From Paraspadella gotoi (taxonomy: Eukaryota > Animalia > Chaetognatha): a stretch of 64,000 nt of DNA. Both the position numbers and the translations under genes were made by a program. Below are positions 6,929 to 64,000 of this stretch, piece by piece. The DNA lies in NCBI GenBank assembly GCA_051294375.1, contig CM119265.1, positions 15,538,963 to 15,602,962 on the forward strand, read 5' to 3'. How positions within the stretch are numbered: position 1 is the stretch's first letter; each line of letters opens with the position of its first letter. The notes beneath the pieces were generated by a model. The model made no database searches and was not told where the DNA came from. It was given only the letters and a program-made list of their open reading frames with translations.

Positions 6929-9140
6929 ACTCTTGAGGGAGAAAATGTTTTAGTAATCCTATGTGAGGGACGGAGAGAGAGGAGAAATGTGCAAATATCT
7001 CGTTTACATTTCGCTAAGAATTTAAACTATTTTGAAAATAAATTGAGGTCAAGACTTAAATTAGTTTGTTGATCATTTATGATTACCATCTAGGCAAAAA
7101 GTATATCACAAAATTGTTAAAAAGTTTATTTATTGATTAAAAAGTAATAAAATATAGGTAAAATATGCTCAATATTTTGTGTGCTCTTTTTTGGCATCGA
7201 CTATTGCTTGCATTTATCTGTGCATGCTTTCGTACAGCAGATTGAGTTATGACGGTGAGATATTTAACATAATTTTTTTAGCCCCTCCGCCGATGTTGCG
7301 TATATTTCTCTTTATAAACCAAAAAAAGATGCGGTGCCTTTGGCATTCCCAAATTATAAAAAAATAATGAACTCAATTCAAAATAAAAGAATTAATAACA
7401 AAAATAATGGAAAACTAAATATAATTTTTTTGTTATTTTTTATTTGAGGTAGTGATCTTTTTTTGCCTGTAACTATTAAAAGATTTGACCTACAAAAAAA
7501 GGAAGAAAGCTACTGAAAAAAAATTTAATGTAGATTGTAAAACATTTTGATTAAACAATTTTTCGAGTAGATATCCTCCACTAAAAATGTTATATACTTT
7601 TTGCCTAGATGGTATATCTGTAGGCAAAAAAAAATATACTATGCACAAAAATACGACTCTGTATTTAATTTTTAGTCAATTTAACAATTTCCCTTACTCA
7701 ACAGCTTTGGACGGCAAAAAACGATGATGGTCGCCCTGATATTGCAAGCCATTGTCGCCATAGGAACCGCGTACACCCCTACCTACGGTGGATATCTCGT
7801 TTTCAGGTTTCCCCGCTTTTTAGTTTGCGCCGTGACTTAATGAGCTCCAATCAACGACGTTCTAATTTCCTTCCATTTCAATCCTCAGATGCATGGTGGG
7901 GGCCTTTCTCTCAGGAGTCTTTAACACCGCTTTCTGCCTGGGTAATTTGATAAATTGAGAGAGAGAGAGAGAAAGAGAGAGAGAAAAAAAAGCAATCAAT
8001 CAATCAATTTTTTTTTCAGCGATGGAATGTGTGGGTCCTTCTCAACGTACTTGGGTCGGCATCGGCGTGGAGATTTTCTGGGCGCTTGGCACTATGATCC
8101 TCGCCGGATTCGCCTACCTCCTTCCGAACTTCAGCGATCTTCAACTGGCTATGTCGGTCCCTCTGTTACTCTTTATCCCCTACTTTTGGTAAGTGCCTCC
8201 TAAGATTTTAACAGTTTGTACTTAATCAACCGCGTTTAATTCGTAATAAAACGCATATTTGAAGGATCGTGCCAGAGTCCCCGCGTTGGCTGCTTCTCCA
8301 CGGCTTCTACGATCGATTCCGCAAAGTCATGATTAACGCTGCGAGAATGAACCGCATTCGTCTACCCGACAAAGTCTTGGACGAATATATGCCGCCGGGG
8401 GTCAGTTGGATCAAATCGATCAATTAGTAATATGTCAATCTCCTAAAACATCAATTGCTATTCAACCATTAGATAAATATTTCAGTAAACTAATTAAAGC
8501 TCTTTAAAATTAAATAAAATGAATCAACTTGTGTCTAACCAGACTTTGTTTCTTTTCACGGTATACCAATCAAAATGATAATAATTCCATAAATAATGGT
8601 AATAATTATAAGGCGGATAAAAAATTATAACAAATTCTGGTCCATTCCCTCCCCCCAGTCAGCGCCATCAACGCCGTCCCCGAGCGAAGGATGGGTGGAG
8701 GTATTCGAGCCGACAAAAGTCAACGATGCCGCCGACGAAGCGGCCGAGCGCCTCGACCGATCCGGCGACGCGGATTCCACCGTCCACCAATCAAAATCTA
8801 AGGATTCTTCTTTTGACCGATCGCTCCTTCTGCCCCCAAAACAAAAGGGCCTCACCTATTTCTTCACGCGCCCGATGCTGCTGCTGAAGACGGCCAACGT
8901 TCTCTTCAACTGGTTCGTCAACACTCTCGTCTATTACGGCCTCACGATGAACTCAACTAACCTCAACGACAACGCGCATCTGAGTCTCTGCATTTCTGGT
9001 GAGGCATGGCTTCCAATGAAAGAGTGATGGAGTCTTTCATTCTCATTTGCATATGAATTTATTTCTTTCCTCTGGAAGTTTAATATTATTTTCATCAATA
9101 ATCATTAACAATAAAATTTTAATTTTATTAATCGTTTGTT

Positions 9141-16422: not shown

Positions 16423-18066
16423 TTTTTAGCCGGATCTGCTTATCAGCAGATTCCGGCTCTATACCATGATGGAAAAAAAAGTGTCGCGGTTTGGAAAAGC
16501 CAGTTAATTTTATTGTCAAATATATTTTTTGGCTAATAAATAAGTTTTAATAGGTAATATGACCTCACTAAGATGGAATAAAATGATTATTTCTTAACAG
16601 CATTAAATTAGTCAATGCATTCAAATACTTGTTGTCTCTAACTGTCTCTAACTTCTTTTTGATTATGAGAACTACTCATATTATTGTTAAAATTATATCT
16701 CTGACATGATATTTTTTATCAGATTTGGGGCAAAAAATGGTCCTTAGCAAGCAGTGAAAAAGATTGATCCTCAATAAAGTAAACCAGGCTTAAGTTATTG
16801 CTGCATAATGTGATAATTCATTATCTTTCGCTTTAACAAAATCTTTATTTTTTTATTTTTGGACTTGTTTGATACTTGATTCTGATAATATATATTGGTT
16901 GTACCAATTTCATATCCAAAGGTAAATAAAAATGATAACTTTGCTTACAGAAAGGTTACCCGGAACCTTATAACTTTTATTGATACTTTATAATTTAAAA
17001 ATAATATTCTGTAACATCTACAGCATCAATGTATTTTTAATATTTTTTTTTTGACATATGAATTAAAATTCATCCCTGAACCTATCCTAATAGAGATAAT
17101 GCAATAATCATTTGACATGAGACTGAGAAAAGGCAGGGATTTTTAATAGTATTGGTTAAACTCAAAAAGTACTAAAAAAAAACCTGAAATGAGTATAAAT
17201 AAAAAGTATAGATAAAAAAAGATAAAAATGAAAGAAGCATTTTTTTGGACAACGCATTTTTTTTACATGGAACTCCTGTATTTTTTGTCATAGATAAATG
17301 AGACACAGCTTATATGAATCATAAAAGGCCAAAGTTTCTTGATATCTAAATTTTATTTTTCGATTCTTACATTAAAATGCCGAAAAATAACTGGAAAGTA
17401 ACCGCGACACTTTTTTTTCCATCATGGTAATTCACTTTACCTGTCTGTCGGTCGCCACTTCTAATCTTGTAAAGAACATCGAATTATGATAAATTTTGAA
17501 AAAAATGATGTCCGTCCGTCCGGCCGACCGTCCCCCCTTAGCTTTTAACGAATGTTACTCATGAATGTATGGGGCGAATGACTTAAAATTTTTTTTGTAT
17601 GTATAGAAGTGTATTATTAAGCAGGAAAAAAGTTTAGATGGAATCGTCCGAGTGGAAATGAGTTTAAATGGAAAAAACAAAAAAACCTGTTTCATTTTTT
17701 ATTATGCTTTTTTTTTATTTTAATATCAAATGTAAATGCAAGCTGCACTAATTATTAAATTAATTAATCAATCAATCAATTAATAAATTATTCAATCAAT
17801 TTACTTATTAATCAATTAATAAATCAAACAATTAATTTATCAATCAATTAATCAATAATTAATTAATTAATTAGTCAATCATTCAATTAATTATCGGCGG
17901 TTTTATCGTTTTCATCGTCGTCGTCGCCATCATAGTCGTTGTTTTTGATTTTTTGATTTTATTTAATTAATTAATATGTAATTAACTAATTATTAATATT
18001 TTAAGTAATTAATTAATTAACGCTAATGATCTTGGGCAGATCCGGCATTGTTTGCTCAAACTTGTT
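16423..18066 (-). mobile_element. HINE/DINE-1-like (Helentron-associated) non-autonomous element carrying a nested MITE
   Basis: Same ends as 35503-36046 and 48721-50050: AACAAGTTTGAGCAA start, AT-rich core, GTCC/GACA microsatellite, and terminal hairpin AGCCGGAATCTGC...GCAGATCCGGCT. Confidence 0.75.
16464..17427. mobile_element. Tc1/mariner-type MITE nested in the HINE-like element
   Basis: Perfect 28-bp TIR CCATGATGGAAAAAAAAGTGTCGCGGTT with TA TSD; the empty site is visible in the paralogous copy at ~50005-50030. Confidence 0.92.
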
Positions 18067-19944: not shown

Positions 19945-20752
19945 GCTATCTTGCCCCTGACTTTGGACAGGCTTTGGTGGTTTAAGGCCTCCATCACTCT
20001 TACAAGATAATAACATAGCAGGTCCCTGATTCTCTGTCTCGTTTATTCACTCCCAGAGTACCTGGTTTCCCTATCGGGGAATACTATATTGTACTCCACA
20101 CTCGCATCAAAATACAAGGAGCTGAATTTTATGAAATTGGTACAACCAATATAAAAATTATCCATTCATTTAATAAATAAGCTATCTTGCCCCTGGCTTT
20201 GGCGGTCATATTAGAGTCGCCCTCATTTCAAAATTAGTATGATACCACTCATTCGCATCGCTCCCCTCAGGATTATCGAAGAACACAACTTCCGTTTCCT
20301 ATTCCGCCTCCTGTAATCGGTTTCCACGACAGCCGATTGACGCTGTTTCACAACAGACAGCCATCTGGATCTCCGACTGCTCAGCGCAGCAATTCGGTCA
20401 TAACAAGTAATCCATGCTATATACTTATTACTTAATCGCTCATAACATAATACGATTCAACATTCCAGAGAATTGAAATAAATATAATAATGCATAATAC
20501 GGACATACTGTTTTTTTCATCGTCACTGAATTGAGAGCAATTGTTAACTTTCTAGTTTCACGATCATCTAGCGAGTGTGACATAACGAGACCCACCGCGC
20601 GCAATTGGTCGGCGCCCGAAGACGTTTCCAACAACAATAATAGTTCGAAGGCTGACAGAGCGCAAGCGCATCCAAGTAAACCAAATAAGATCAAATATTT
20701 AAATTCAAGATCAATGAAAAATCAACGGCTAATATAATAAGGTCAGAAAAAG

Positions 20753-32950: not shown

Positions 32951-41932
<8,982 letters not shown>

Positions 41933-42853: not shown

Positions 42854-45800
42854 TTAGTGATAAACGAAGTCCCAATTATCGTTAGTCTGCAGCTTTTTCA
42901 ATGCTTCGGCAGTCAGTCCCGGTTCGCCGTACGTCAGCGGCGAAAGAGTCTTAAAGGTATCGAAGACAAAGAAGACCCAGACGGCGACGCCCATCGTGAG
43001 CAGGTGCTGCAGATGGCCGAGACGCGAGAAAAGCGTCCCCACGTGATCGACTAGGAAAGCGAGACAGAGGATCTTGAAATACAGCGCCGGAATGTAGTGG
43101 TGTAGGAAGAGGGTATGATCGTAGACGAAATAGGGAACAAAGTGAAGGCAGTAGCCGCCGACAAAGAGCCATCCCGCGAGACGGAAGGTGGACCACCAGT
43201 CGAAAAGAAGGAGGGCGGCGGCGTCGTCGATGCCCTCCACGTCATCCAGATCCTCATCCTCGTCTTCGACGACGTTTTCCTCGGTGGGTGCGTCGGTCAG
43301 CGTATCACTCGGGATCGTGATCCACCCGCGCCGAATAAGCAAGAGGTAAAGTGCGAGAAACAAAAAGTAAAACAGGATGGCGAGGAAGGCGGAACGCCAT
43401 ATGATGGGATTTCCGATGAGATGGATCTGAGAGTGGGAGGTGGTCGATGCCCAATAGCCGACTGTAGTGTCGAGCAAAGGCCAATCGGATGGCGTCGAGC
43501 CGAAGCGATGTTCTGAAGAGAATACAGATTACAATACAAGACTACAAGTATACAAAAAAAAAGGAAAGCCTTGTCACTTGATTCTCACCTTTAGGAATAT
43601 CATGAATCGTGGTAATCATCTTGACCTGTAACTCGTAGACCTTCTCAAAGAGTCCAAGACTGACGGGATTGGATGGGATGAAATCGGACTGGAGCAGATC
43701 GCGTTTCCGTTTTACCTCTTCATCGGCGCCCTGCTCCTGATCCCCCGATTTTATCATTTGATGCTCTTCCACGTTCCACAGAGTTGGATTTTGTTTCGTT
43801 ACTCGATCCGTTGTCACCTCCAACTGGTTAAAAGAAAATTTGAAGGCGTGAACTTTCAAGCTGAGATTAACTTGAAAAGAAAATTTTGTGCGAATGCTTT
43901 CTTCCTTCTTATACCTGGTGAAACCCCCAATCGGGAAGCATCTTCCCGGTCGACTTGAGTGCCTGTTTCGTTTCCACGTGGACGAGTCTGATTCGGGAAC
44001 TGATAGGTCGCCATTGGACGGCATCGTCTCCCGCTTCGGCGCCTTCCACCTCCAAGCGCCACAGGTTCTGAGCCGGCATAGAGACGTTGTAGTCGACGTA
44101 ACAGGACACTTCCTGATTTTCCGGCGTTAATGGTGCCGCCACGTCGTGCGAGTTGAGGGATCTTCCTGTCATTCCGTGGATTATCTGTATGACGTCGCCG
44201 TTCTCTAAGGGGCGCAGCTCGTCGGGATCGGTTGGCAACACATCCGTACGAGGAGACTGTGTAAACAAAACAGTAAAATGTGCATCGCATTTAAAACATA
44301 TGAAAATAATGTGTTTTTTTTTACCAACCTTGACGATCCACCAATTATTGACGTCCTTGAAGGGGTAGCACGTTACTTGCTGCTGATGACTGGACCCTCT
44401 GTTGTCGGGATATTTGATGGGGTAAAAATGCTGGTGCGAGTGAAGCCAACAAGCAGGATGATGAAAACTGTTACGTAACGTGATTTGAGAGCCAATTTTA
44501 ATAAAAGGGGGTTGACCTTCGACGATGGAGGCCAACCCGCCTTCTAAAGACGCCTGAAAACAAAGGGAAAAACCGTTAAATCGAAAAGAATTTAAACATT
44601 TTAATTAGGAGAAAAACAATTTTTATTTGTTTTGACAACGAATTTTAGTGACAATTTGACAGACATGTTTCGACTCTTTTCTTTTTAGAGTCTTCATCAG
44701 TGAAGACTCTAAAAATACAGAGTCGAAACATGTCTGTCAAATTGTCACTAAAATTCGTTGTCAAAACAAATAAAAATTGTTTTTCTCCTAATGCCCATAA
44801 ACAACGAAATCGAAAGTCTATACACAATGTCTAACATTTTAATTTTAATCGAAAATCTGAAAACCTGAAAAGCCGAGGTCATTATGTGGTCGTGAGGTCC
44901 AGCTTTTGTCAACATCATCACATGCCCCGATAAGATGAAGCTGTATAAAAAAAGAGGAAGCGCAACTACCAAACTGGCTATCACGCAAGCGCGTGCCGCG
45001 AGAGATCGTGAGGAGAGCGAGAGATCGGGCAACTGGCGCCGCCAAAAGTCGACGCACACGGCGGCGACGCACATCATCCACGTGTAGACGGCAGAATATT
45101 TGACGGAAAAAGCGAGACCGACGGAGAGGCCGGTGCACGTCAACCAAGAGAGATGACGAAGAGAGAAGGGTCGCGACTTGATCACTTTAAGGAGCGAAAC
45201 GAAGGCGAAGGAGATGCAGCAGAGGAGGATGGAATCCAGGAGGATGAAGCGAGACTGGACGAGGAGGGCGTTGTCAAGAATGATGAGAACAGCGCCTGAG
45301 ATAAATCGCAAAAATTTTAAACTTGATGAAAGAATATAATGAATACAGAAGGCTTCATATTATAAAATGTGGTACCCCTTTTTTGTGACCAGAATCTGTT
45401 CCCACCAAACTACCTGATCGAATTTAATGAAATTTTACATTTAGAGTGCTAATGACTATATAAATGGAACTATCGAGGCGAATTTTGATATTCAACCCCT
45501 GACAAGAGATACAGGGCCCTGGGGGTGGACCCCTGGGGGGGCCAAAAAATTCTAAATTTTTTTTTCATTTTTCAAATTTTTTCAGTAGCATCAGGTGCAT
45601 TGTCGTTTCAAACATAAGAAAAATTTTTGACCATTTTTCGCCCCCATGGGTGACCCCTGGGGGCGGGGGCCCATATCTCGGCTCAGCGGTCAATATTGAA
45701 ATTCGCCTCTATTGTTTTATTAGTATTCACATAGGGATCGTTCATTCCAAATTTCAATAAATTTGGTCCAGTAGTTTTCTCGGAACGAGTTCTGGTCACA

Positions 45801-46938
45801 AAAAAAAGGGGTACTATGGCAACAGCCGGGTTGCCTGTGATGCCCATTGGGATGGGGCATCTCACTGTTGGCTTTGGGGGCTTCCGACCCTCAGTGACGC
45901 CTCCAGTCACTGGCGGGTTACCCTAGGACGGTCTCGCTTTGCCAACGCAGAGGGAAGTCGTTAGGACTGTGGATGGAACACTACGCCTGGGATGGTGTGT
46001 TTCCCTCTCTGAGCCAATGGATTTGGCTGACGGATGGTGGACGTGAGGCGGTGTGAATATACGCCACAGTACCACATTTATAATATGAAGCCTTCTTTAT
46101 ATATGTATATCACAACAGCTAAAAACGCACCCAACGAAGCCGTCCACGAAGAGCATCCGACCTCCAGCAAAAGGTGATACGTCAGCGGAGACAGAAGCGA
46201 TCCACAAAAAGCGGGTACGAATCTCAAGTGCCACAAAGGGATCGTCGGAGGATACTCAGCGCCGATCTTGTCCAAGTTGAACTGGCCGTCGAAACCGGCG
46301 TAGCGTCCGGCCAAGGCTATGAACATTTTACCAAGAGGTGGATTTGCATCGAAGAAGAATATGCCATTGAGATAGTGCGAGGCGAATTTTCCGAAGTTGA
46401 GCTCGTCGAAAACGACGGCGCGAGGCTCCTCCAGCTTGTAAAAGCGCGTAGACAGCGCCGTCACAAAGAGGAGAACCGAAAGGGCGTCCACCTCCAACTT
46501 GAGAGACTCGAAAAAAGAATCGACGGCCGCGAAAGTTCCCGAAGGACCCGAAGTCGAACCGGCGATGGAGCCCGCGGCCGACGAGTGACGTAGTCGGCGT
46601 TTGGGAGATGATGACACCATCCCACCGTCAGACCGGTTTCGCCCGCGAGCGCCTCTCGGAGAAGACCTAGGCGTTTCCGGTTTCGACTGAGCGGCGACTT
46701 CTCGCGCCATTTTTGAGTGGGACGGTTCTTTTCCGGCGGTCGTCGACGGGAAGAATTCGGGTAAGGCGTCAATAACGCCGGGTGGTGGCGGGTCGCCGAG
46801 CGCTCGGCGGGGGACGATGGATCGAGGATTGTCGAATCCTTTGGTCGATAGGATGGGACTTAAAAGTTCGGCGTCGAATCGACTTGAGGTTCGCTCGCCT
46901 TTTTGTTTCTGGGAATGGATCTTCGCAACATCGGTCAT
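42854..46938 (-). CDS. POMT1: Protein O-mannosyltransferase 1
   Basis: [11 protein letters not shown]...[28 protein letters not shown]...[20 protein letters not shown] (POMT1-type), MIR repeats, [30 protein letters not shown]. Confidence 0.96.
44604..44792. mobile_element. 189-bp near-perfect palindrome (inverted Penelope-like pLTR fragments) with a hammerhead core on the minus strand (44662-44700)
   Basis: The arms are near-perfect reverse complements; the minus strand reads CTGATGA-A-GACTCT...AGAGTC-GAAAC-ATGTC. Confidence 0.75.
45347..46096. mobile_element. Non-autonomous element with nested inverted repeats in a POMT1 intron
   Basis: Outer ~28-bp TIR AGAAGGCTTCATATTATAAA(A)TGTGGTAC; inner IR GTACCCCTTTTTTGTGACCAGAA (45372- / -45814); the 3' part is repeated at 12559-12805. 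Confidence 0.8.
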
Positions 46939-57120: not shown

Positions 57121-57879
57121 GATCGGATTATTCTAAAAGTTCTTCCTTATTTTGTCTTCGGTTGCCAAGAAAATATTCCAGGTCTCGTATCTAAAATTCC
57201 GTCTGTTTTCACGAGGGAGTTTGTCTCTTACAATTGCAGAAGTGCAGCGACTCCCTCTTTAAAGTGAAGCCATGATTGCGGGGGGAGACCAAGTTTATCG
57301 GCGGGAAGCACGGAGGGTGACAGATGAAACGATGGTGGCGAGTGAATAGGAAACGATGATTTCAATTTTATTGTCCAGAGAGGCATGCATCATAAGTGTA
57401 AGGAAGATTAAATCCAGAATATTGAAAATCCGAAACCCGTATGTCTGCAAAAAAAAAAAAAAAAAATTGAAAAAAATAAATGAGATTCTCTCCGAAACGT
57501 TAAAAATTCTCAATCGTTCACAATTCTTACCTCAAAAGTTATAGCGCCGCAAATACGTGAAATGCCTCTTTTAAATCTCGAAAAGAAAATCTGGAAATGG
57601 AGATCTAATCGAAAAAACTGTTAAGTTAGTCGAGCATTATTACGAATCAATGAAATACAGTCGATTCAATGGAAATAACAGACAATGAAAAAAGGGCAAT
57701 CGTTAATACATCAGGTCAGTAGATAAAGTCTTGGAGATCAATGAAAAATCGTAATCTTTCAACATTGTACTAGGACAATCAATTCTAAAAAATAGTCTAG
57801 TACTAAAATAATTTCGAGTATATCGGTAAACAAAAAAACAAAACTGGCGAAAGGTTTAATAAGTAAAAAAAAAGTAGAT

Positions 57880-58233: not shown

Positions 58234-58310
58234 CTGAAAAAAAAAAAAAAAAATTCATTGAGGCCAACTATGAGAAGAAAACAACAACCCATTCATGACA
58301 AAAACATTAT

Positions 58311-58679
58311 TCAAGGCTGAAAATTTTTGTTATATTTTCTACAAGCCAAAATAAATCTCCGCTGCGTTACGCCTCTAATAAAACTTTTTAGTGAAAGATA
58401 GTACTTCCCATCCTTCACCTTGACCCCCTGCTGATGCAGTTCGTCAAATTCGGGAAAATGAAGCCATAAATTATCGAAGAAGACTTGAAAGTAGAGCTTT
58501 CCTGTCATACTAGGATGATAATTGGGGCTCATTCTTGCCATCAAATTCCCAATTTCGTAAAGGAATGATTTCAATAATTTGAGGCCGACTTCGTCCTTAT
58601 TCAAATGATTCGCGTCCATGTTTCTCAAGGCTTGATATTTTAGACTTGATTCCAAAAAGGTACTTAACTCTCCAAGATT
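58311..58679 (-). CDS. Alternative 3' terminal exon D (variable domain)
   Basis: TTTTTTCAG acceptor, phase 0, NLGELSTFLESSLKY...DGKYYLSLKSFIRGVTQRRF...*. Confidence 0.8.
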   Translation of the reverse strand, partial: NLGELSTFLESSLKYQALRNMDANHLNKDEVGLKLLKSFLYEIGNLMARMSPNYHPSMTGKLYFQVFFDNLWLHFPEFDELHQQGVKVKDGKYYLSLKSFIRGVTQRRFILACRKYNKNFQP

Positions 58680-58792
58680 CTGAAAAAATTAGGGGGGGAA
58701 TATAAATACCATTACAGCACTTTCAAGTTTCCTTCTTACATTAATAATTTCGGGGCCAAACTCAAAAAGAAATAGCCACAAGTTTAAAAGTA

Positions 58793-59164
58793 CTAGGAGC
58801 ACTTTTGGTTGATAATTTTCATTCTAAACTGACGGTAAAGATAGGTTTTTATGTATCCTTTAATAGATCTTTTAGTTTTCCCATCAGGAATAGTTAAACC
58901 AGTTTTATATATTTGTTCAAGCCACGGAACAAAAGTCCAGAAAACCACAAACAAGCAATCAAAAATGGCCTTAAACTTCGGGTTTTTAACTTCAGGCATG
59001 AAGAATTTGCCGGTAATTTCTTTCGTAAAATCATGACCAAGAGAAGTTATAAGTCGCAAAATGCATGAATTTTTGTCCAAGGTTGGAATACTTTGAAGAT
59101 TCCTCAACGCATCGGCTTTAGAACTGCCTTGAAGAAACAGACCAGCTACTTCATAGTATTGTCT
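58793..59164 (-). CDS. Alternative 3' terminal exon C (variable domain)
   Basis: TTTTTCAG acceptor, phase 0, RQYYEVAGLFLQGSSKADAL...DGKTKRSIKGYIKTYLYRQF...*. Confidence 0.8.
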   Translation of the reverse strand, partial: RQYYEVAGLFLQGSSKADALRNLQSIPTLDKNSCILRLITSLGHDFTKEITGKFFMPEVKNPKFKAIFDCLFVVFWTFVPWLEQIYKTGLTIPDGKTKRSIKGYIKTYLYRQFRMKIINQKCS

Positions 59165-59226
59165 CTGAAAAAGAAAAAAAGAATCTGAGTCTAAACTTAC
59201 ATGGGTTGTTGTTTTCTTAAATTAGT

Positions 59227-59622
59227 TTAATTCAATGATTTCAGTTTATCATGAAAAGTGTATTTCTTCAGATTTTCCCTAAGTCGTCTCTGCAAAACTG
59301 ACTTCACATAACTTTTAAACTTAGTTTTCCTCGAACCATCAAACATATCCAACGTTTCAAACTGATGAAAAGGGTCTTTGAAAAAAGTCCAAAAAGATTC
59401 AAACATGTAAATAAACAAGAGTTTAAATTCATCCCCACAATAAGGATGACTGGGAAAAATAGAAGCTGTAAATTTTGCAGTGTCATAGCAAAGAGAATTT
59501 AATATTTTGAAAGTAGGAGAGGTATGTTCAACAAAAGTAGGGTCGTGAAGATTCTTAAACATCTTTGCCTTGGAGCTATTTTGGAGATATTCACTGATGT
59601 GCTGATTAACCATTCCATTCAT
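59227..59622 (-). CDS. Alternative 3' terminal exon B (variable domain)
   Basis: TTTTTCAG acceptor, phase 0, MNGMVNQHISEYLQNSSKAKM...DGSRKTKFKSYVKSVLQRRL...*. Confidence 0.8.
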   Translation of the reverse strand: MNGMVNQHISEYLQNSSKAKMFKNLHDPTFVEHTSPTFKILNSLCYDTAKFTASIFPSHPYCGDEFKLLFIYMFESFWTFFKDPFHQFETLDMFDGSRKTKFKSYVKSVLQRRLRENLKKYTFHDKLKSLN

Positions 59623-60174
59623 CTGAAAAATTAAAATGGGATAATTTGAAGTCATCCTTTTCAGTTAAAAAAGATTAAGAAAATGAAGGAATAAGTTTAC
59701 AGACCACCCAACCTTTAAAAACAAACCATCTAAATAGCCTTTAGAAATTGCTTCAGAAAAGCTTGGTCGTGATAATAGCATCAGAGATAATGTAGCATGT
59801 TCATGCTCCAAAAATTTATAGAAGTACTAATTCTGAATTATAAAACCCTCTCATCGACATGAATCGATAAAAGGATTTAGTCTTTTAAGACAAACAGAAA
59901 TAAATTCCTAATTAGTTAAGGCAGGATGAGTAATCCGGGCAGCGATGTCATTATAGATAACAGGCATACGGGTAAAACTCCGCCGGAGAGTTTCGTTCAG
60001 CGTTTAGGAGCCAAAAACTCCCTCGACTCAGATCTTTTAAAAAGGTTTTCGGTAATCCGAAACCAATCGAGGTACAATTTCCTCCCGTGGTTAAACACAA
60101 AACAATTGTTTAAAAAAAAAGACTTCCGAATAAATGTTTCGACGTAATACGTACATTATTTTTCATTCGCTAAA

Positions 60175-61945
60175 ATGAAAAAGCTTTTTCTGCTCCTCAT
60201 TTTTTCCTTAAACTCCACCAGTACTACTCATATCAAGTACATCGACCCGCAAATCGAACAAAATGTTATAGCCTACTCCCACACTGAGAAACGCGGTCAA
60301 TGGGTCTACAGAAAAGCTAAACTTTCTTATGGATATTTTTTCGCGGTTGAGTCGACTAACGTGCGACTGAAACAAATCGTGGCTAAAGAGACCTTGCTCT
60401 CGCGTTTCCAAAAGCAAATTCCCTTGGGAACAGATATCATGTTCACCGACAGAGATGAGTGCCACAACTGCCAGCAGCGGGGGAAGGTAGGACACTATCG
60501 TGGCAACGGTTATTTTGAGATAATTGGGAGTGTGTGTTCGATCGCGAGAAACAGCCTGACCATGGTGACGTCAAACACAACCTATCGCCACGTTTCGGAA
60601 ATACGAAAGTACGTTGTAGAACCCCAGGACGTGTGGAGGGAGAGAATTTGTAATGAAAAGTCAATTGGTGCACAAGTAGCGTTCAGAATTTCTAACCATT
60701 GCAACCGGTATAAAATTGGATTTCTGACTTATCGGCCAAAAGTAAAAATAGAGTTTAAAGAGGGACTATACGAAGATACCGGAGAGACCTACTTTATCGG
60801 TATAACTGGATCTGAGGCCGAAATGACTCCGGACATCAAGCCAGACATTTCTTCTATAAAGAACGACCAGCTGGTGATTGTAAAAGTGAACGGAAAATGG
60901 CTCGCAGGACATTATCAATCAAAAGCCGTAAAACTCAAAGGAAATTCACCCAACTTATTGAAAATTACAGACACGACCGAATTAAGGATTCTAGACGCTC
61001 AGGTTCTCCCTTTTTGCAAGGAGTCGAATTCTACGGTGGTTATTATAAAACCGATTGAACCGACTAACTCGACCAGCACTGTGAGCGACATCTCCCAAGG
61101 AAATTTAGCTACCATCCTGATCATCTTAGGAATAACCGCTATGGTTTCCATTCTTTTTGGAATAATTATATACATTTTTGTCATATACCTCAAAAGCTAT
61201 AAAAAAAGAAAGCGAAGACAAATTTCCCTTGGAGAGAGTTTACCCAGTTGCGGAGTTCGCGAATCATTTGCCTGCGATTTAAGTCAAAGGTATTTAATTA
61301 ATTTATTAATTAATTAATTATAATTATACAATTTTATAAGTAGAAAATTAAAAACTGAGTTTACATTAGTTATACTGATTTTATTATTGTTTAAATAGTT
61401 GAAATAGTTTATGATAGTTTAAAAAAAGGAAAGACTTGTTAAAACTAATATTGGCCTTTAGTAAGCAAAAGATATTAAACGAAAATTTTTATCCTGATTA
61501 GCTTTGAAGCAGGGCCGAATCAACAACACAGGAAAACAACCAATACGACTCTCCAATATAAAATCACGGGAGCAAAATCTCTATATGGTAACTGCCTAAG
61601 TGGTAACAGCACTGAACCTTATGCTGAAGTCAATATAGTGGATCGAAGCTTGACAATGCAAGAAAAGGTTTGAACAAAAGGATTGTGCCAAATAATGTCA
61701 GTAGGAGTCTTTCAAAAAATAAAATATAGAATATCTTTTGCGAAGTCGGACGATGGAAAGGTTTACGACAGACTCACAAGAAGAAATATGGATTCGGCAC
61801 AACGTCATACATCGACTAATAATTACGACAAAGTTGAGCAGTCACCGATATATTTTGGTTTGTAGAAAATATCGTTATGTATAAAAAATATTACGATAAT
61901 TTCACCTTTTTTTTTAATACAGATTTAGAAGGGCCTGAAAATTAG
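60175..61945 (+). CDS. Type I single-pass membrane protein with Tyr-based cytoplasmic motifs, nested antisense in the variable-exon array
   Basis: Signal peptide MKKLFLLLIFSL, ~290-aa ectodomain, TM segment LATILIILGITAMVSILFGIIIYIFVIYL followed by KKRKRR. Further in-frame GT-AG exons (~61502-61667, 61746-61857, 61923-61945) add YAEV, YDRL, YDKV and YFDL. Confidence 0.75.
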
Positions 61946-62034
61946 GCGTTGCCTTTGGATTGCCAAGAGCCAGAAAAAGACTAACAGACTAATAAAGAAA
62001 AAAACCGAAACTAAAGTTCAATTCATTTTAACGT

Positions 62035-62429
62035 TTAGGAAGAATTAATTTGAATAATGTCTACTCTCTCGATTCTTCCCATTTTTTTGCAAGTCAGTAA
62101 TCCACGTTGAAGCTTAGCTCTAACATAAGCTTTGAATCCTCTTTGGATTGTCCTTCTTGTATCCTGAGGCCGGAAAGATGAATGGCTTCGAAATTTGTAA
62201 AATGTTTCCAAAGAGCCAAAAAAGAACGTTAAATAAGGCATCCTTTGTACTGATACAGTTTTTAGCGAGAAACTTTGCACAATCAAACAGGAAAGAGGCA
62301 AGAACTTTTAGTTCTAAGGAAGTCTTTTGAAATTCTGTTCCAGGATGAAGTTGTGCAACAACGCCAGACTTGGCGTTTTTCCAACAGCAACATTTTAAAT
62401 TCGTTTTCGACAGATTCTCCTCTTTCAAT
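62035..62429 (-). pseudogene. Alternative 3' terminal exon A (variable domain), frameshifted
   Basis: Phase-0 acceptor TTCGTTCCAG; homology to exons B-E is recovered only by changing frame three times, each in a homopolymer run. Confidence 0.7.
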
Positions 62430-62498
62430 CTGGAACGAAAACAGATCGGAAACTCTGATCATTAGAAAAGCGGTTCACATTATCACAATCACAACGAC

Positions 62499-64000
62499 CT
62501 TTGATTTTTCACCATTCGTTACGGTACCGGATATTGCTGAAAAAAAATGACAGCCGCTGAAATTGACCCCGCTCAAGACATTCGTAACAACTAACAAGAA
62601 TCCTTCGAAAGTTAGCCACTGATCTCAACCATATGAGGACATGTGAGGTTCTTAATTTGAAAACTTTTTGAACCAAACAAAAAACCAAAACGAATAAAAC
62701 TCACCATATCCGTTCCATCTGGCAAAATGTGACCTCCGTATCCAGAATTAGTGGGCTGAATAGCGTTTGACGATGATCCGATTAACGGGAAGCCGCCCGA
62801 GTTGCCAACTCCCACCACGGCGCCAGCTCCAGCGGTTCCGGTACCGTCTTCGTCGCCCTGAATCTCTTGAATGTCACTGTCACCGTCGCCGGTAACATGT
62901 TCAGTTTCAGTAAAAACAGCGCCGGCTTCCGGTTTAACGTCAACGATGTGCGCCTCTGTCTTTGCATCGAAAGGAACCAACTGCGAGGCGGTGCCGTCTA
63001 TCGAGGGCGCATCAACACCGCTAACGGAGCGCGTTTTTTTTGCCGCTGACGTCGCGGAGTGGTCGCGCGAATGACGCTTTCTCGTCGACGCACCGCGCGA
63101 GGTCGAAGAGTCTATGTGAGTGAAACTGTTTTCTGTCATGTTCTGCCATGAGGCGTTCTGCCAAGAATAATTGAGGTGGTTCTTCTCCAATAGGCGAGGT
63201 TCGTTCGATTCAAGTCCGAGTTCCACATCGTTGCCTGTTAAAATCAACAACAATATTTAAATAATTTGAAAACTTGGTTTGAAAAAAATTAGTAATTAAA
63301 AAATTGTCCGAATCCGAGGAAATATATTGCACGGGTTCCTTTTTTTTATGGGCTTAATAAAATCGCTCGTTGACCAGACGAAAAAAAAAATAACGTTCCA
63401 GAAAATGTGTCCGGCGTGAAAATAAAAACCGAGAATGACGGGGTTTTAATCGGACTCTTGACAAAAGAAGAATAGCAATAGCGGCTTCACTTTCGAAACA
63501 ATGCTAAATTAAACAATGGTCGACTGGCTTCACTATTGTCAGTCGGCTTTTGTTGTCCTCGAGTGATTGGACAATGGACACCGTCGTCGTCTTAAAAGAA
63601 TCAGTTCCCTTTTTTGAAGGCTTTTGTCATAAAGACAATGCCAAACTTTTTTGTATGGGATTCTAAACAAAACTGTCGAAGTTGGTAGCAAGACTCACCG
63701 ATAGGAGTGAGGTTGTTGGTGGCGTAGGCTTCACACAGATGTCGTTTTCCAGCGTACTTTCGGCCTTCGGCAGTTTCTATCAGCAGGAATACGTTCGCAT
63801 CTAACAATAAAAATATCGAAAAATGTCTAAAATACCGACGCAGACGGAGAACGCTGAAAACCTATCGCGATTTATCACCTGTGAGGGAAGCTAATTTTAG
63901 GCAGTGTTCTATGAGAATATTCGACAACGATTGCTCCATGTTTTGTAACTGATTCACTAATCCCATGAGAGATTGAGCAGATGCCATTTCTCCGTACTGT
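62499..64000 (-). CDS. Common 5' exons of the variable-tail gene: MADS/SRF-like N-terminal region plus a disordered linker (start lies beyond the window)
   Basis: Exons >64000-63879, 63800-63699 and 63234-62705 give ...LSNILIEHCLKLASLTDANVFLLIETAEGRKYAGKRHLCEAY..., resembling the MADS-box segment KKA.ELS.LTG..V.LLV.S..G....F. An RKR motif (possible NLS) follows. Possible micro-exons at 62602-62596 and 62536-62499. Both candidate final donors are phase 0. Confidence 0.72.

Follow-up and report, generated by a model that had tools for sequence, protein, structure and literature searches.

Long-range RNA pairing in splice choice has been described mostly from arthropods and vertebrates. In the genes mod(mdg4) and lola, a constant N-terminal BTB domain is joined to one of several C-terminal domains. 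Among structured acceptors, the intron 4 and exon 5 boxes of Drosophila Nmnat form a conserved stem around the acceptor of an alternative terminal exon, and when this stem was broken, the proximal acceptor was used more and the distal one less (Raker et al. 2009, PMC2724269). In Drosophila PGRP-LC, CG42235 and Pip, the alternative 3' cassettes are preceded by similar selectors competing for a single docking site located at the common donor, and pairing activates their exon, according to the sections consulted of Pan et al. 2018 (PMC6191721).

Here, we describe a cluster of alternative terminal exons on the minus strand of the window (the whole 64-kb stretch of chaetognath DNA that was analysed), in which two of the exons lie between the arms of an exact 18-nt inverted repeat, referred to as H1. 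As in the described part of the Nmnat work, where the stem lowers proximal and promotes distal use, a conserved stem surrounds the acceptor of an alternative terminal exon, and two further predicted helices, H2 and H3, share the intron-to-exon geometry of that stem (PMC2724269). Unlike the Nmnat stem as presented there, H1 encloses two whole coding exons in a 908-nt loop, further stems enclose inner and distal acceptors, all of the tails are paralogous, and the organism trans-splices leaders; whereas the Nmnat pairing was tested by compensatory mutation, H1 is known from sequence and predicted folds. As in RPS23B (PMC12350175), the stem would start just past the branch point, which is predicted here, hide an AG and shorten the path to a later AG. 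In contrast to the stems covered in the consulted part of that paper, which are short and local and hide cryptic sites within constitutive introns, H1 is long-range and would hide functional alternative exons. The cluster is also similar to PGRP-LC, CG42235 and Pip in its tandem alternative 3' cassettes and the conserved complementary elements before their acceptors; unlike PGRP-LC as outlined in PMC6191721, each element has its own partner and there is no conserved element at the donor.

The novelty lies in the phylum, in the gene family, which is undescribed, in each acceptor having a helix of its own and in the setting of leader trans-splicing. If our reading is true, such pairing would also operate in chaetognaths, in an undescribed family whose five C-terminal domains can be swapped, and the cluster would offer a compact 2-kb test case of how a leader-adding animal keeps unused donor-less acceptors intact in one transcript. 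A search of literature listings found no published report of H1, and the terms "alternative splicing" and "MADS" are absent from the main text of the chaetognath genome paper (PMC12460157).

Host gene, terminal exons and protein family

The contig sets X7, X5 and X9, whose runs are not on record as RNA, were taken as RNA because they show spliced joints, leader additions and poly(A); as X5 hardly differs from X7, the two were counted once. Contig rows at the poly-T before exon E were left out. The gene has one common donor followed by five alternative terminal exons, A to E, which are tandem paralogues used one at a time; the joints link the donor to A, B and D. The features of the host gene are as follows.

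From 63879 upward, and 63699-63800 (-): upstream common exons, from RNA joints (X7/X5, X9)
62705..63234 (-): last common exon with a phase-0 donor, from RNA joints
62035..62429 (-): alternative terminal exon A, joint 62705-62429 in X7
59227..59622 (-): alternative terminal exon B, joint in X7, X5 and X9
58793..59164 (-): alternative terminal exon C, open phase-0 frame within the H1 loop, relatives 81-86% identical
58311..58679 (-): alternative terminal exon D, joint in X9, within the H1 loop
57880..58233 (-): alternative terminal exon E, indirect, from an X7/X5 contig whose length fits an end at the acceptor
57604..57606 (-): poly(A) site, which is also the spliced-leader acceptor of the next gene, from poly(A) and leader loose ends

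The D joint in X9 had a depth like that of the B joint (58 versus 52), although depths were not used for ranking isoforms. No joint to C or E was present among the joints listed from these contigs, but since contigs drop rare forms and the rows before E were left out, this does not count against their use; the protein P0121 of a relative corresponds to the spliced common-plus-E form. Exon A of the window contains three 1-nt indels, and because DNA and RNA contigs carry the identical three, its frameshifts were attributed to assembly errors. More generally, the region 61456-62513, which includes these three, showed at least 10 single-base indels relative to short-read contigs and is an error-rich part of the assembly.

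In X9, one contig joined to B continued without a break across C into D, and a second, overlapping one ran through D and E, indicating that upstream isoforms can retain the later exons as 3'UTR. Leader loose ends at 57604 and 63234 (-) matched the 3' ends of the chaetognath leaders SL1 and SL2 (Table 3, PMC2481426), which identifies the animal as a chaetognath, and the coincidence of the poly(A) site with the leader acceptor of the next gene resembles the close-packed chaetognath operon in the consulted part of the same paper. A literature search on zero-gap leader operons found nothing. The 3' end at 57604-57606 may arise from the trans-splicing cut. A CTAAC motif was observed 22 nt upstream of this site, and the neighbouring gene is presumably eIF1AD-like, as judged by resemblance. 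At 63234, the acceptor of the last common exon, the spliced leader is added in X9, and the resulting mRNAs would lose most of the N-terminal domain. At 57728 (-), the E contig of X7 departs from the window sequence with a 31-nt loose end and no GT donor.

A profile search with B to E retrieved 116 proteins at E <=0.001, and P0008-P0116 represent a large family with the same constant N-terminus and tail domain. The family clusters looked up came from ENA, JGI or Logan, and the sole name given was "hypothetical protein". In the tree, exons B, C, D and E of the window each formed a clade with relatives (support 0.98-1.0), and A-type relatives were 67-73% identical to exon A of the window, which shows that the exon cluster is older than these species. 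The predicted fold of the tail domain is confident (pLDDT 92.7); Pfam, a PDB sequence search, Foldseek, VIA-align and the ESM Atlas revealed no clear family for it, which is not proof of a new fold. Exon E and the neighbouring gene were also used as queries in word-index protein searches, which gave no matches at longer lengths. The model of the constant N-terminus has a helix-hairpin-helix topology and aligned with the SRF MADS domain (1k6o_B; Z 6.5, rmsd 3.5, 66 residues), a resemblance that is a lead only, since an SRF-TF Pfam match was found in 0 of 18 full-length relatives and none among PDB sequences either. The overall plan is similar to that of mod(mdg4) and lola, as a constant and likely dimerising N-terminus is combined with one of several paralogous C-terminal domains. 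In contrast to those genes, the constant domain resembles the SRF MADS fold rather than BTB, and the tail has no family match.

The inverted repeat H1 and the neighbouring helices

The original prediction proposed that perfect 18-nt complementary elements bracket exons C and D, one just after the B stop and the other shortly before the E acceptor. We found both the complementarity and the placement to be correct: 59218-59201 (-) is the exact reverse complement of 58292-58275 (-). The elements around the spacers are as follows.

59221..59225 (-): predicted branch-point motif CTAAT, branch A at -58, directly 5' of arm 1
59201..59218 (-): H1 arm 1, in the B-C spacer, -54..-37 of the C acceptor, 8 nt past the B stop
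58718..58735 (-): pre-D element (H3 arm), -56..-39 of the D acceptor, recurring as EGNLKV in P0150
58476..58493 (-): H3 partner in the coding sequence of exon D, with a competing local hairpin
58275..58292 (-): H1 arm 2, in the D-E spacer, -59..-42 of the E acceptor
58255..58269 (-): pre-E element (H2 arm), -36..-22 of the E acceptor, recurring as VGLNEF in P0120 and P0126
57920..57937 (-): H2 partner in the coding sequence of exon E, pairing with 58269-58255
62555..62577 (-): weak candidate docking element past the common donor, which could pair with 58766-58750 before D

The H1 repeat is real and exceeds chance. When the B-C and D-E spacers were shuffled, a complement of 18 nt appeared in 0 of 20,000 shuffles (longest seen, 14 nt). 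With the arms kept apart, a repeat of at least 18 nt appeared once when 59700-57800 was shuffled 2,000 times and never in 500 shuffles of the entire 3' locus (62720-57600); separated arms were required because self-overlapping palindromes, if counted, inflate the chance level (46/2,000 and 30/600 at >=18 nt). It had also been considered that the 18-mer might be a common repeat, but across the 64-kb window we found only two exact copies, namely the two arms, and one copy with 3 mismatches. Additionally, the best partner of arm 1 was arm 2 (-26.6 kcal/mol; next best across the locus, -12.6), the best partner of arm 2 reached -26.7 kcal/mol (next best, -14.7), and the duplex was stronger than 500 of 500 shuffled partners. 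Elsewhere in the window, there are at least six further perfect inverted-repeat pairs (18-74 nt, arms less than 5 kb apart), so the length of H1 alone is not unique and is not in itself a sign of function; the argument for a function comes from conservation.

Such other perfect inverted repeats, of 18-74 nt, were noted at 7084-7614, 16462-17429, 33432-33649, 44604-44792 and 45347-46096. Two of the other repeats begin with TACCAT, like the H1 arm, and may be small transposon ends.

In the predicted folds, H1 had pair probabilities of 0.95, 0.90 and 0.89 in three folding windows and enclosed both C and D, in agreement with the looping out of these exons that had been proposed. The pre-D and pre-E elements are predicted to pair with their own exons: H3 (58735-58718 with 58493-58476 of exon D) reached -21.0 kcal/mol and H2 (58269-58255 with 57937-57920 of exon E) reached -24.2 kcal/mol, and in each case 0 of 500 shuffles were as strong. 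The predicted pair probability of H2 was 0.84-0.99 in global folds, and that of H3 was 0.03-0.93, varying with the folding window owing to the competing local hairpin within exon D. H1 encloses C and D, H3 encloses D, and H2 encloses E, so that each of the three exons lies inside a predicted stem; as the helices are nested or side by side, they are compatible with one another. The offsets from their own acceptors at which arm 1, the pre-D element and arm 2 begin are nearly equal (-54, -56 and -59), and the three spacer elements are dissimilar in sequence. Neither H2 and H3 nor leader trans-splicing featured in the original prediction. An Rfam search gave a single chance-level match.

Two other candidates were rejected. 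A switch between H1 and H3 was considered, as the H3 probability was 0.03 with H1 and 0.33 with arm 1 open, but without H1 it ranged from 0.20 to 0.93 depending on the window. The 26-nt repeat 61872-61847 / 58357-58332 would form a helix of -19.3 kcal/mol, which ranked only 14 among background pairs.

YTRAY is the branch-point consensus. The CTAAT motif is the sole YTRAY within 80 nt of the C acceptor, and its A lies 4 nt before arm 1; the C branch point is predicted from this motif match only. The E acceptor has no YTRAY, only CTCAT at -38, and in a scan, 4 of 12 acceptors had no motif. The original prediction also suggested that the duplex might mask the C branch point, but the stem does not cover the predicted branch point and opens 4 nt after it. 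Its description of the elements as docking/selector-like did not hold either. Each H1 arm has one strong partner, and neither lies close to the common donor at 62704, from which arm 1 is separated by about 3.5 kb. The motif occurs just twice in the locus, whereas a docking site is served by at least two mutually exclusive similar selectors. H1 is not a docking/selector member of the kind found in Dscam1 and PGRP-LC; it probably works like known acceptor-enclosing stems.

Recurrence of the spacer elements in relatives

The spacers of relatives were read from 19 N-terminal read-through peptides, which gene callers had translated from unspliced intron sequence, and each was set against all three frames of the corresponding window spacer; two metagenome scans for the DNA of relatives, with the E and D alignments, found nothing. 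In the B-C spacer, 2 of 3 records reach arm 1 and both match it in different frames, P0157 with KTTTH (1/2,000 shuffles) and P0162 with ENNNPC (0/2,000 shuffles). In the D-E spacer, arm 2 was matched in one of nine records (P0120, WVVVF; 7/2,000 shuffles) and was unmatched in P0004 and P0160, which are two of the three E-type read-throughs of at least 30 aa. The check for conservation called for by the original prediction was positive at the peptide level in 2/2 informative records for arm 1 and 1/3 long records for arm 2. Both H1 arms appear to recur in relatives, whose adjacent exons are 68-86% identical, with the nucleotides deduced from peptides and the arms from separate records.

The pre-E element was matched by VGLNEF in P0120 and P0126 (4 aa and 40/2,000 shuffles in a trimmed test), and 6 of the 7 other E-type records start with Met-Asn, which fits ATGAAT at this position (background 6/153), although these represent only two clusters. 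The pre-D element was matched in one of six C-D records (P0150, EGNLKV; 0/2,000) and was unmatched in P0005 and P0140, two of the three D-type read-throughs of at least 20 aa. Longer spacers could account for the unmatched P0004, P0160, P0005 and P0140. For the A-B spacer, 0 of 1 records matched. When the five matching peptides were set against 157 unrelated pre-acceptor stretches, none reached a match of 5 aa, and all N-terminal matches of at least 5 aa sit on the helix arm of their own spacer.

In the matching relatives, the adjacent exon is 55-86% identical and spacer lengths are altered. The distance from arm 1 to the C acceptor is kept (about -51, -54 and -45 nt). In P0162, arm 1 follows 84 nt that do not resemble the end of B, compared with the 8 nt after the B stop in the window, which by inspection indicates that arm 1 is tied to the C acceptor and not to the B stop. 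The near-constant spacing of about 45-54 nt between arm 1 and the C acceptor, compared with a variable one between arm 1 and B, favours an acceptor role over a stop-linked role. H1 is a real feature, conserved as far as the peptides show, and is probably functional.

Proposed acceptor control and alternative explanations

We favour, with a probability of roughly 0.55, the reading that H1 is an acceptor-enclosing stem of the Nmnat type that dampens C and D and favours E. The 18-nt arms would pair in the pre-mRNA once the D-E spacer is transcribed, producing one long-range stem that encloses the C and D acceptors; these would become less competitive, and the common donor would shift to E or stay with the upstream B. 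The stem would open 4 nt past the predicted branch A of C, separating it from the C pyrimidine tract and AG, and on the far side 41 nt would be left to the AG of E. The shorter helices H3 and H2 would likewise enclose the D and E acceptors, so that each acceptor would be accessible up to the moment at which its downstream partner is transcribed, but no longer, and quiet from then on within the long 3'UTR of upstream isoforms. As D is spliced although it lies in the H1 loop, the stem is no absolute block. Both arms persist in the mature B mRNA, and a cytoplasmic role fits as well.

By analogy with stems such as that of RPS23B, H1 could also hand the branch point of C to the AG of E. An extended version, which we regard as speculative and rather doubtful, is that one branch point would serve two exons 0.9 kb apart (C with the stem open, and with the stem closed E, whose AG would be 44 nt away), in combination with a one-helix-per-acceptor lock against leader trans-splicing of the long 3'UTR. 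If true, this would be an RNA-structure solution for a multi-acceptor cluster in a trans-splicing animal.

Two further explanations place the action of the helices after the splice choice, and we consider each of them unlikely. The helices might keep spliced-leader trans-splicing away from acceptors left over in the RNA and thereby prevent truncation of the mRNA. The leader substrate is defined by an unpaired 3' splice site, and retained donor-less acceptors resemble outrons (PMC5737717, in the part consulted); B-joined RNA keeps the donor-less acceptors of C, D and E and would be such a substrate. Leader ends do occur at 63234 and 57604, the poly(A) site being the leader acceptor of the next gene, and in addition to there being one helix for each retained acceptor, the B-joined contig is unbroken through C into D and the D contig through E. 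However, the A and B acceptors are also without a leader among the listed loose ends, yet no helix enclosing either of them was detected; a leader is added at 63234, the acceptor of the common exon, so stray addition is tolerated here; and contigs drop rare forms. Alternatively, the helices might fold the long 3'UTR of the mature mRNA, bringing the stop near the poly(A) tail to avoid nonsense-mediated decay, or binding double-strand RNA proteins. Decay is suppressed by fold-back in human cells (PMC2689704, in the part consulted), the minus strand has no AATAAA below 61307, and H1 together with H2 would shorten the stop-to-poly(A) distance from 1,623 to about 331 nt for B, from 1,189 to 581 nt for C and from 707 to 358 nt for D. 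This explanation is weakened by P0162, in which the element tracks the acceptor rather than the stop, by the shifted C and D stops of relatives, and by ATTAAA variants at 59503, 59231, 58864 and 57860, which could yield shorter UTRs.

The remaining explanations seem to us less probable still. A classical arrangement, in which a donor-near docking site pairs in turn with selectors before each exon, H1 included, is very unlikely: the candidate at 62577-62555 could form a duplex of -21 to -23.5 kcal/mol with 58766-58750 (25/1,000 and 3/150 shuffles), and a 3-aa LAP match lies on the pre-D side in two of four C-type tails, but pairing of this candidate with B, C and E does not exceed chance (270, 621 and 104 of 1,000 shuffles), the H1 arms are single-partnered, and the three spacer elements are unalike. 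We give the least credence to the repeat being a product of chance or an old mobile-element terminal repeat, with the spacer motifs serving as single-strand protein-binding sites. The A/C-rich composition of the arm and the other perfect inverted repeats of 18-30 nt in the window, two of them sharing its TACCAT start, would suit such an origin. Against it, we found no target-site duplication flanking H1 and no extra dispersed copies within the 64-kb window; the enclosed exons are old, each in its own clade with relatives; and there are three independent conserved elements, each with a partner beating 500 of 500 shuffles.

Several minor features of the locus were also observed. The sole two GTRAG donor-like sites in the retained 3'UTR are at 59200 and 58739 (-), adjoining arm 1 and the pre-D element; as donors, these GTAAG sites were rejected, since the read-throughs P0157 and P0150 are at odds with them and no listed joint uses them. 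In an X7 contig, a donor at 59713 is spliced to the B acceptor at 59622 (-), and B begins with an in-frame ATG, so that there may be a B product made of the tail alone, or an internal promoter. The A-B intron contains an antisense gene of 379 aa at 60178-61314 (+), for which Pfam gave no confident match; its transcripts extend to at least 62144, and its spliced joints 61664-61743 and 61856-61922 (+) carry the likely 3'UTR into exon A in antisense. Finally, the segment 56770-56805 is matched by very many unrelated contigs; it is similar to 16891-16914 and 20130-20153 and is probably a dispersed intronic repeat.
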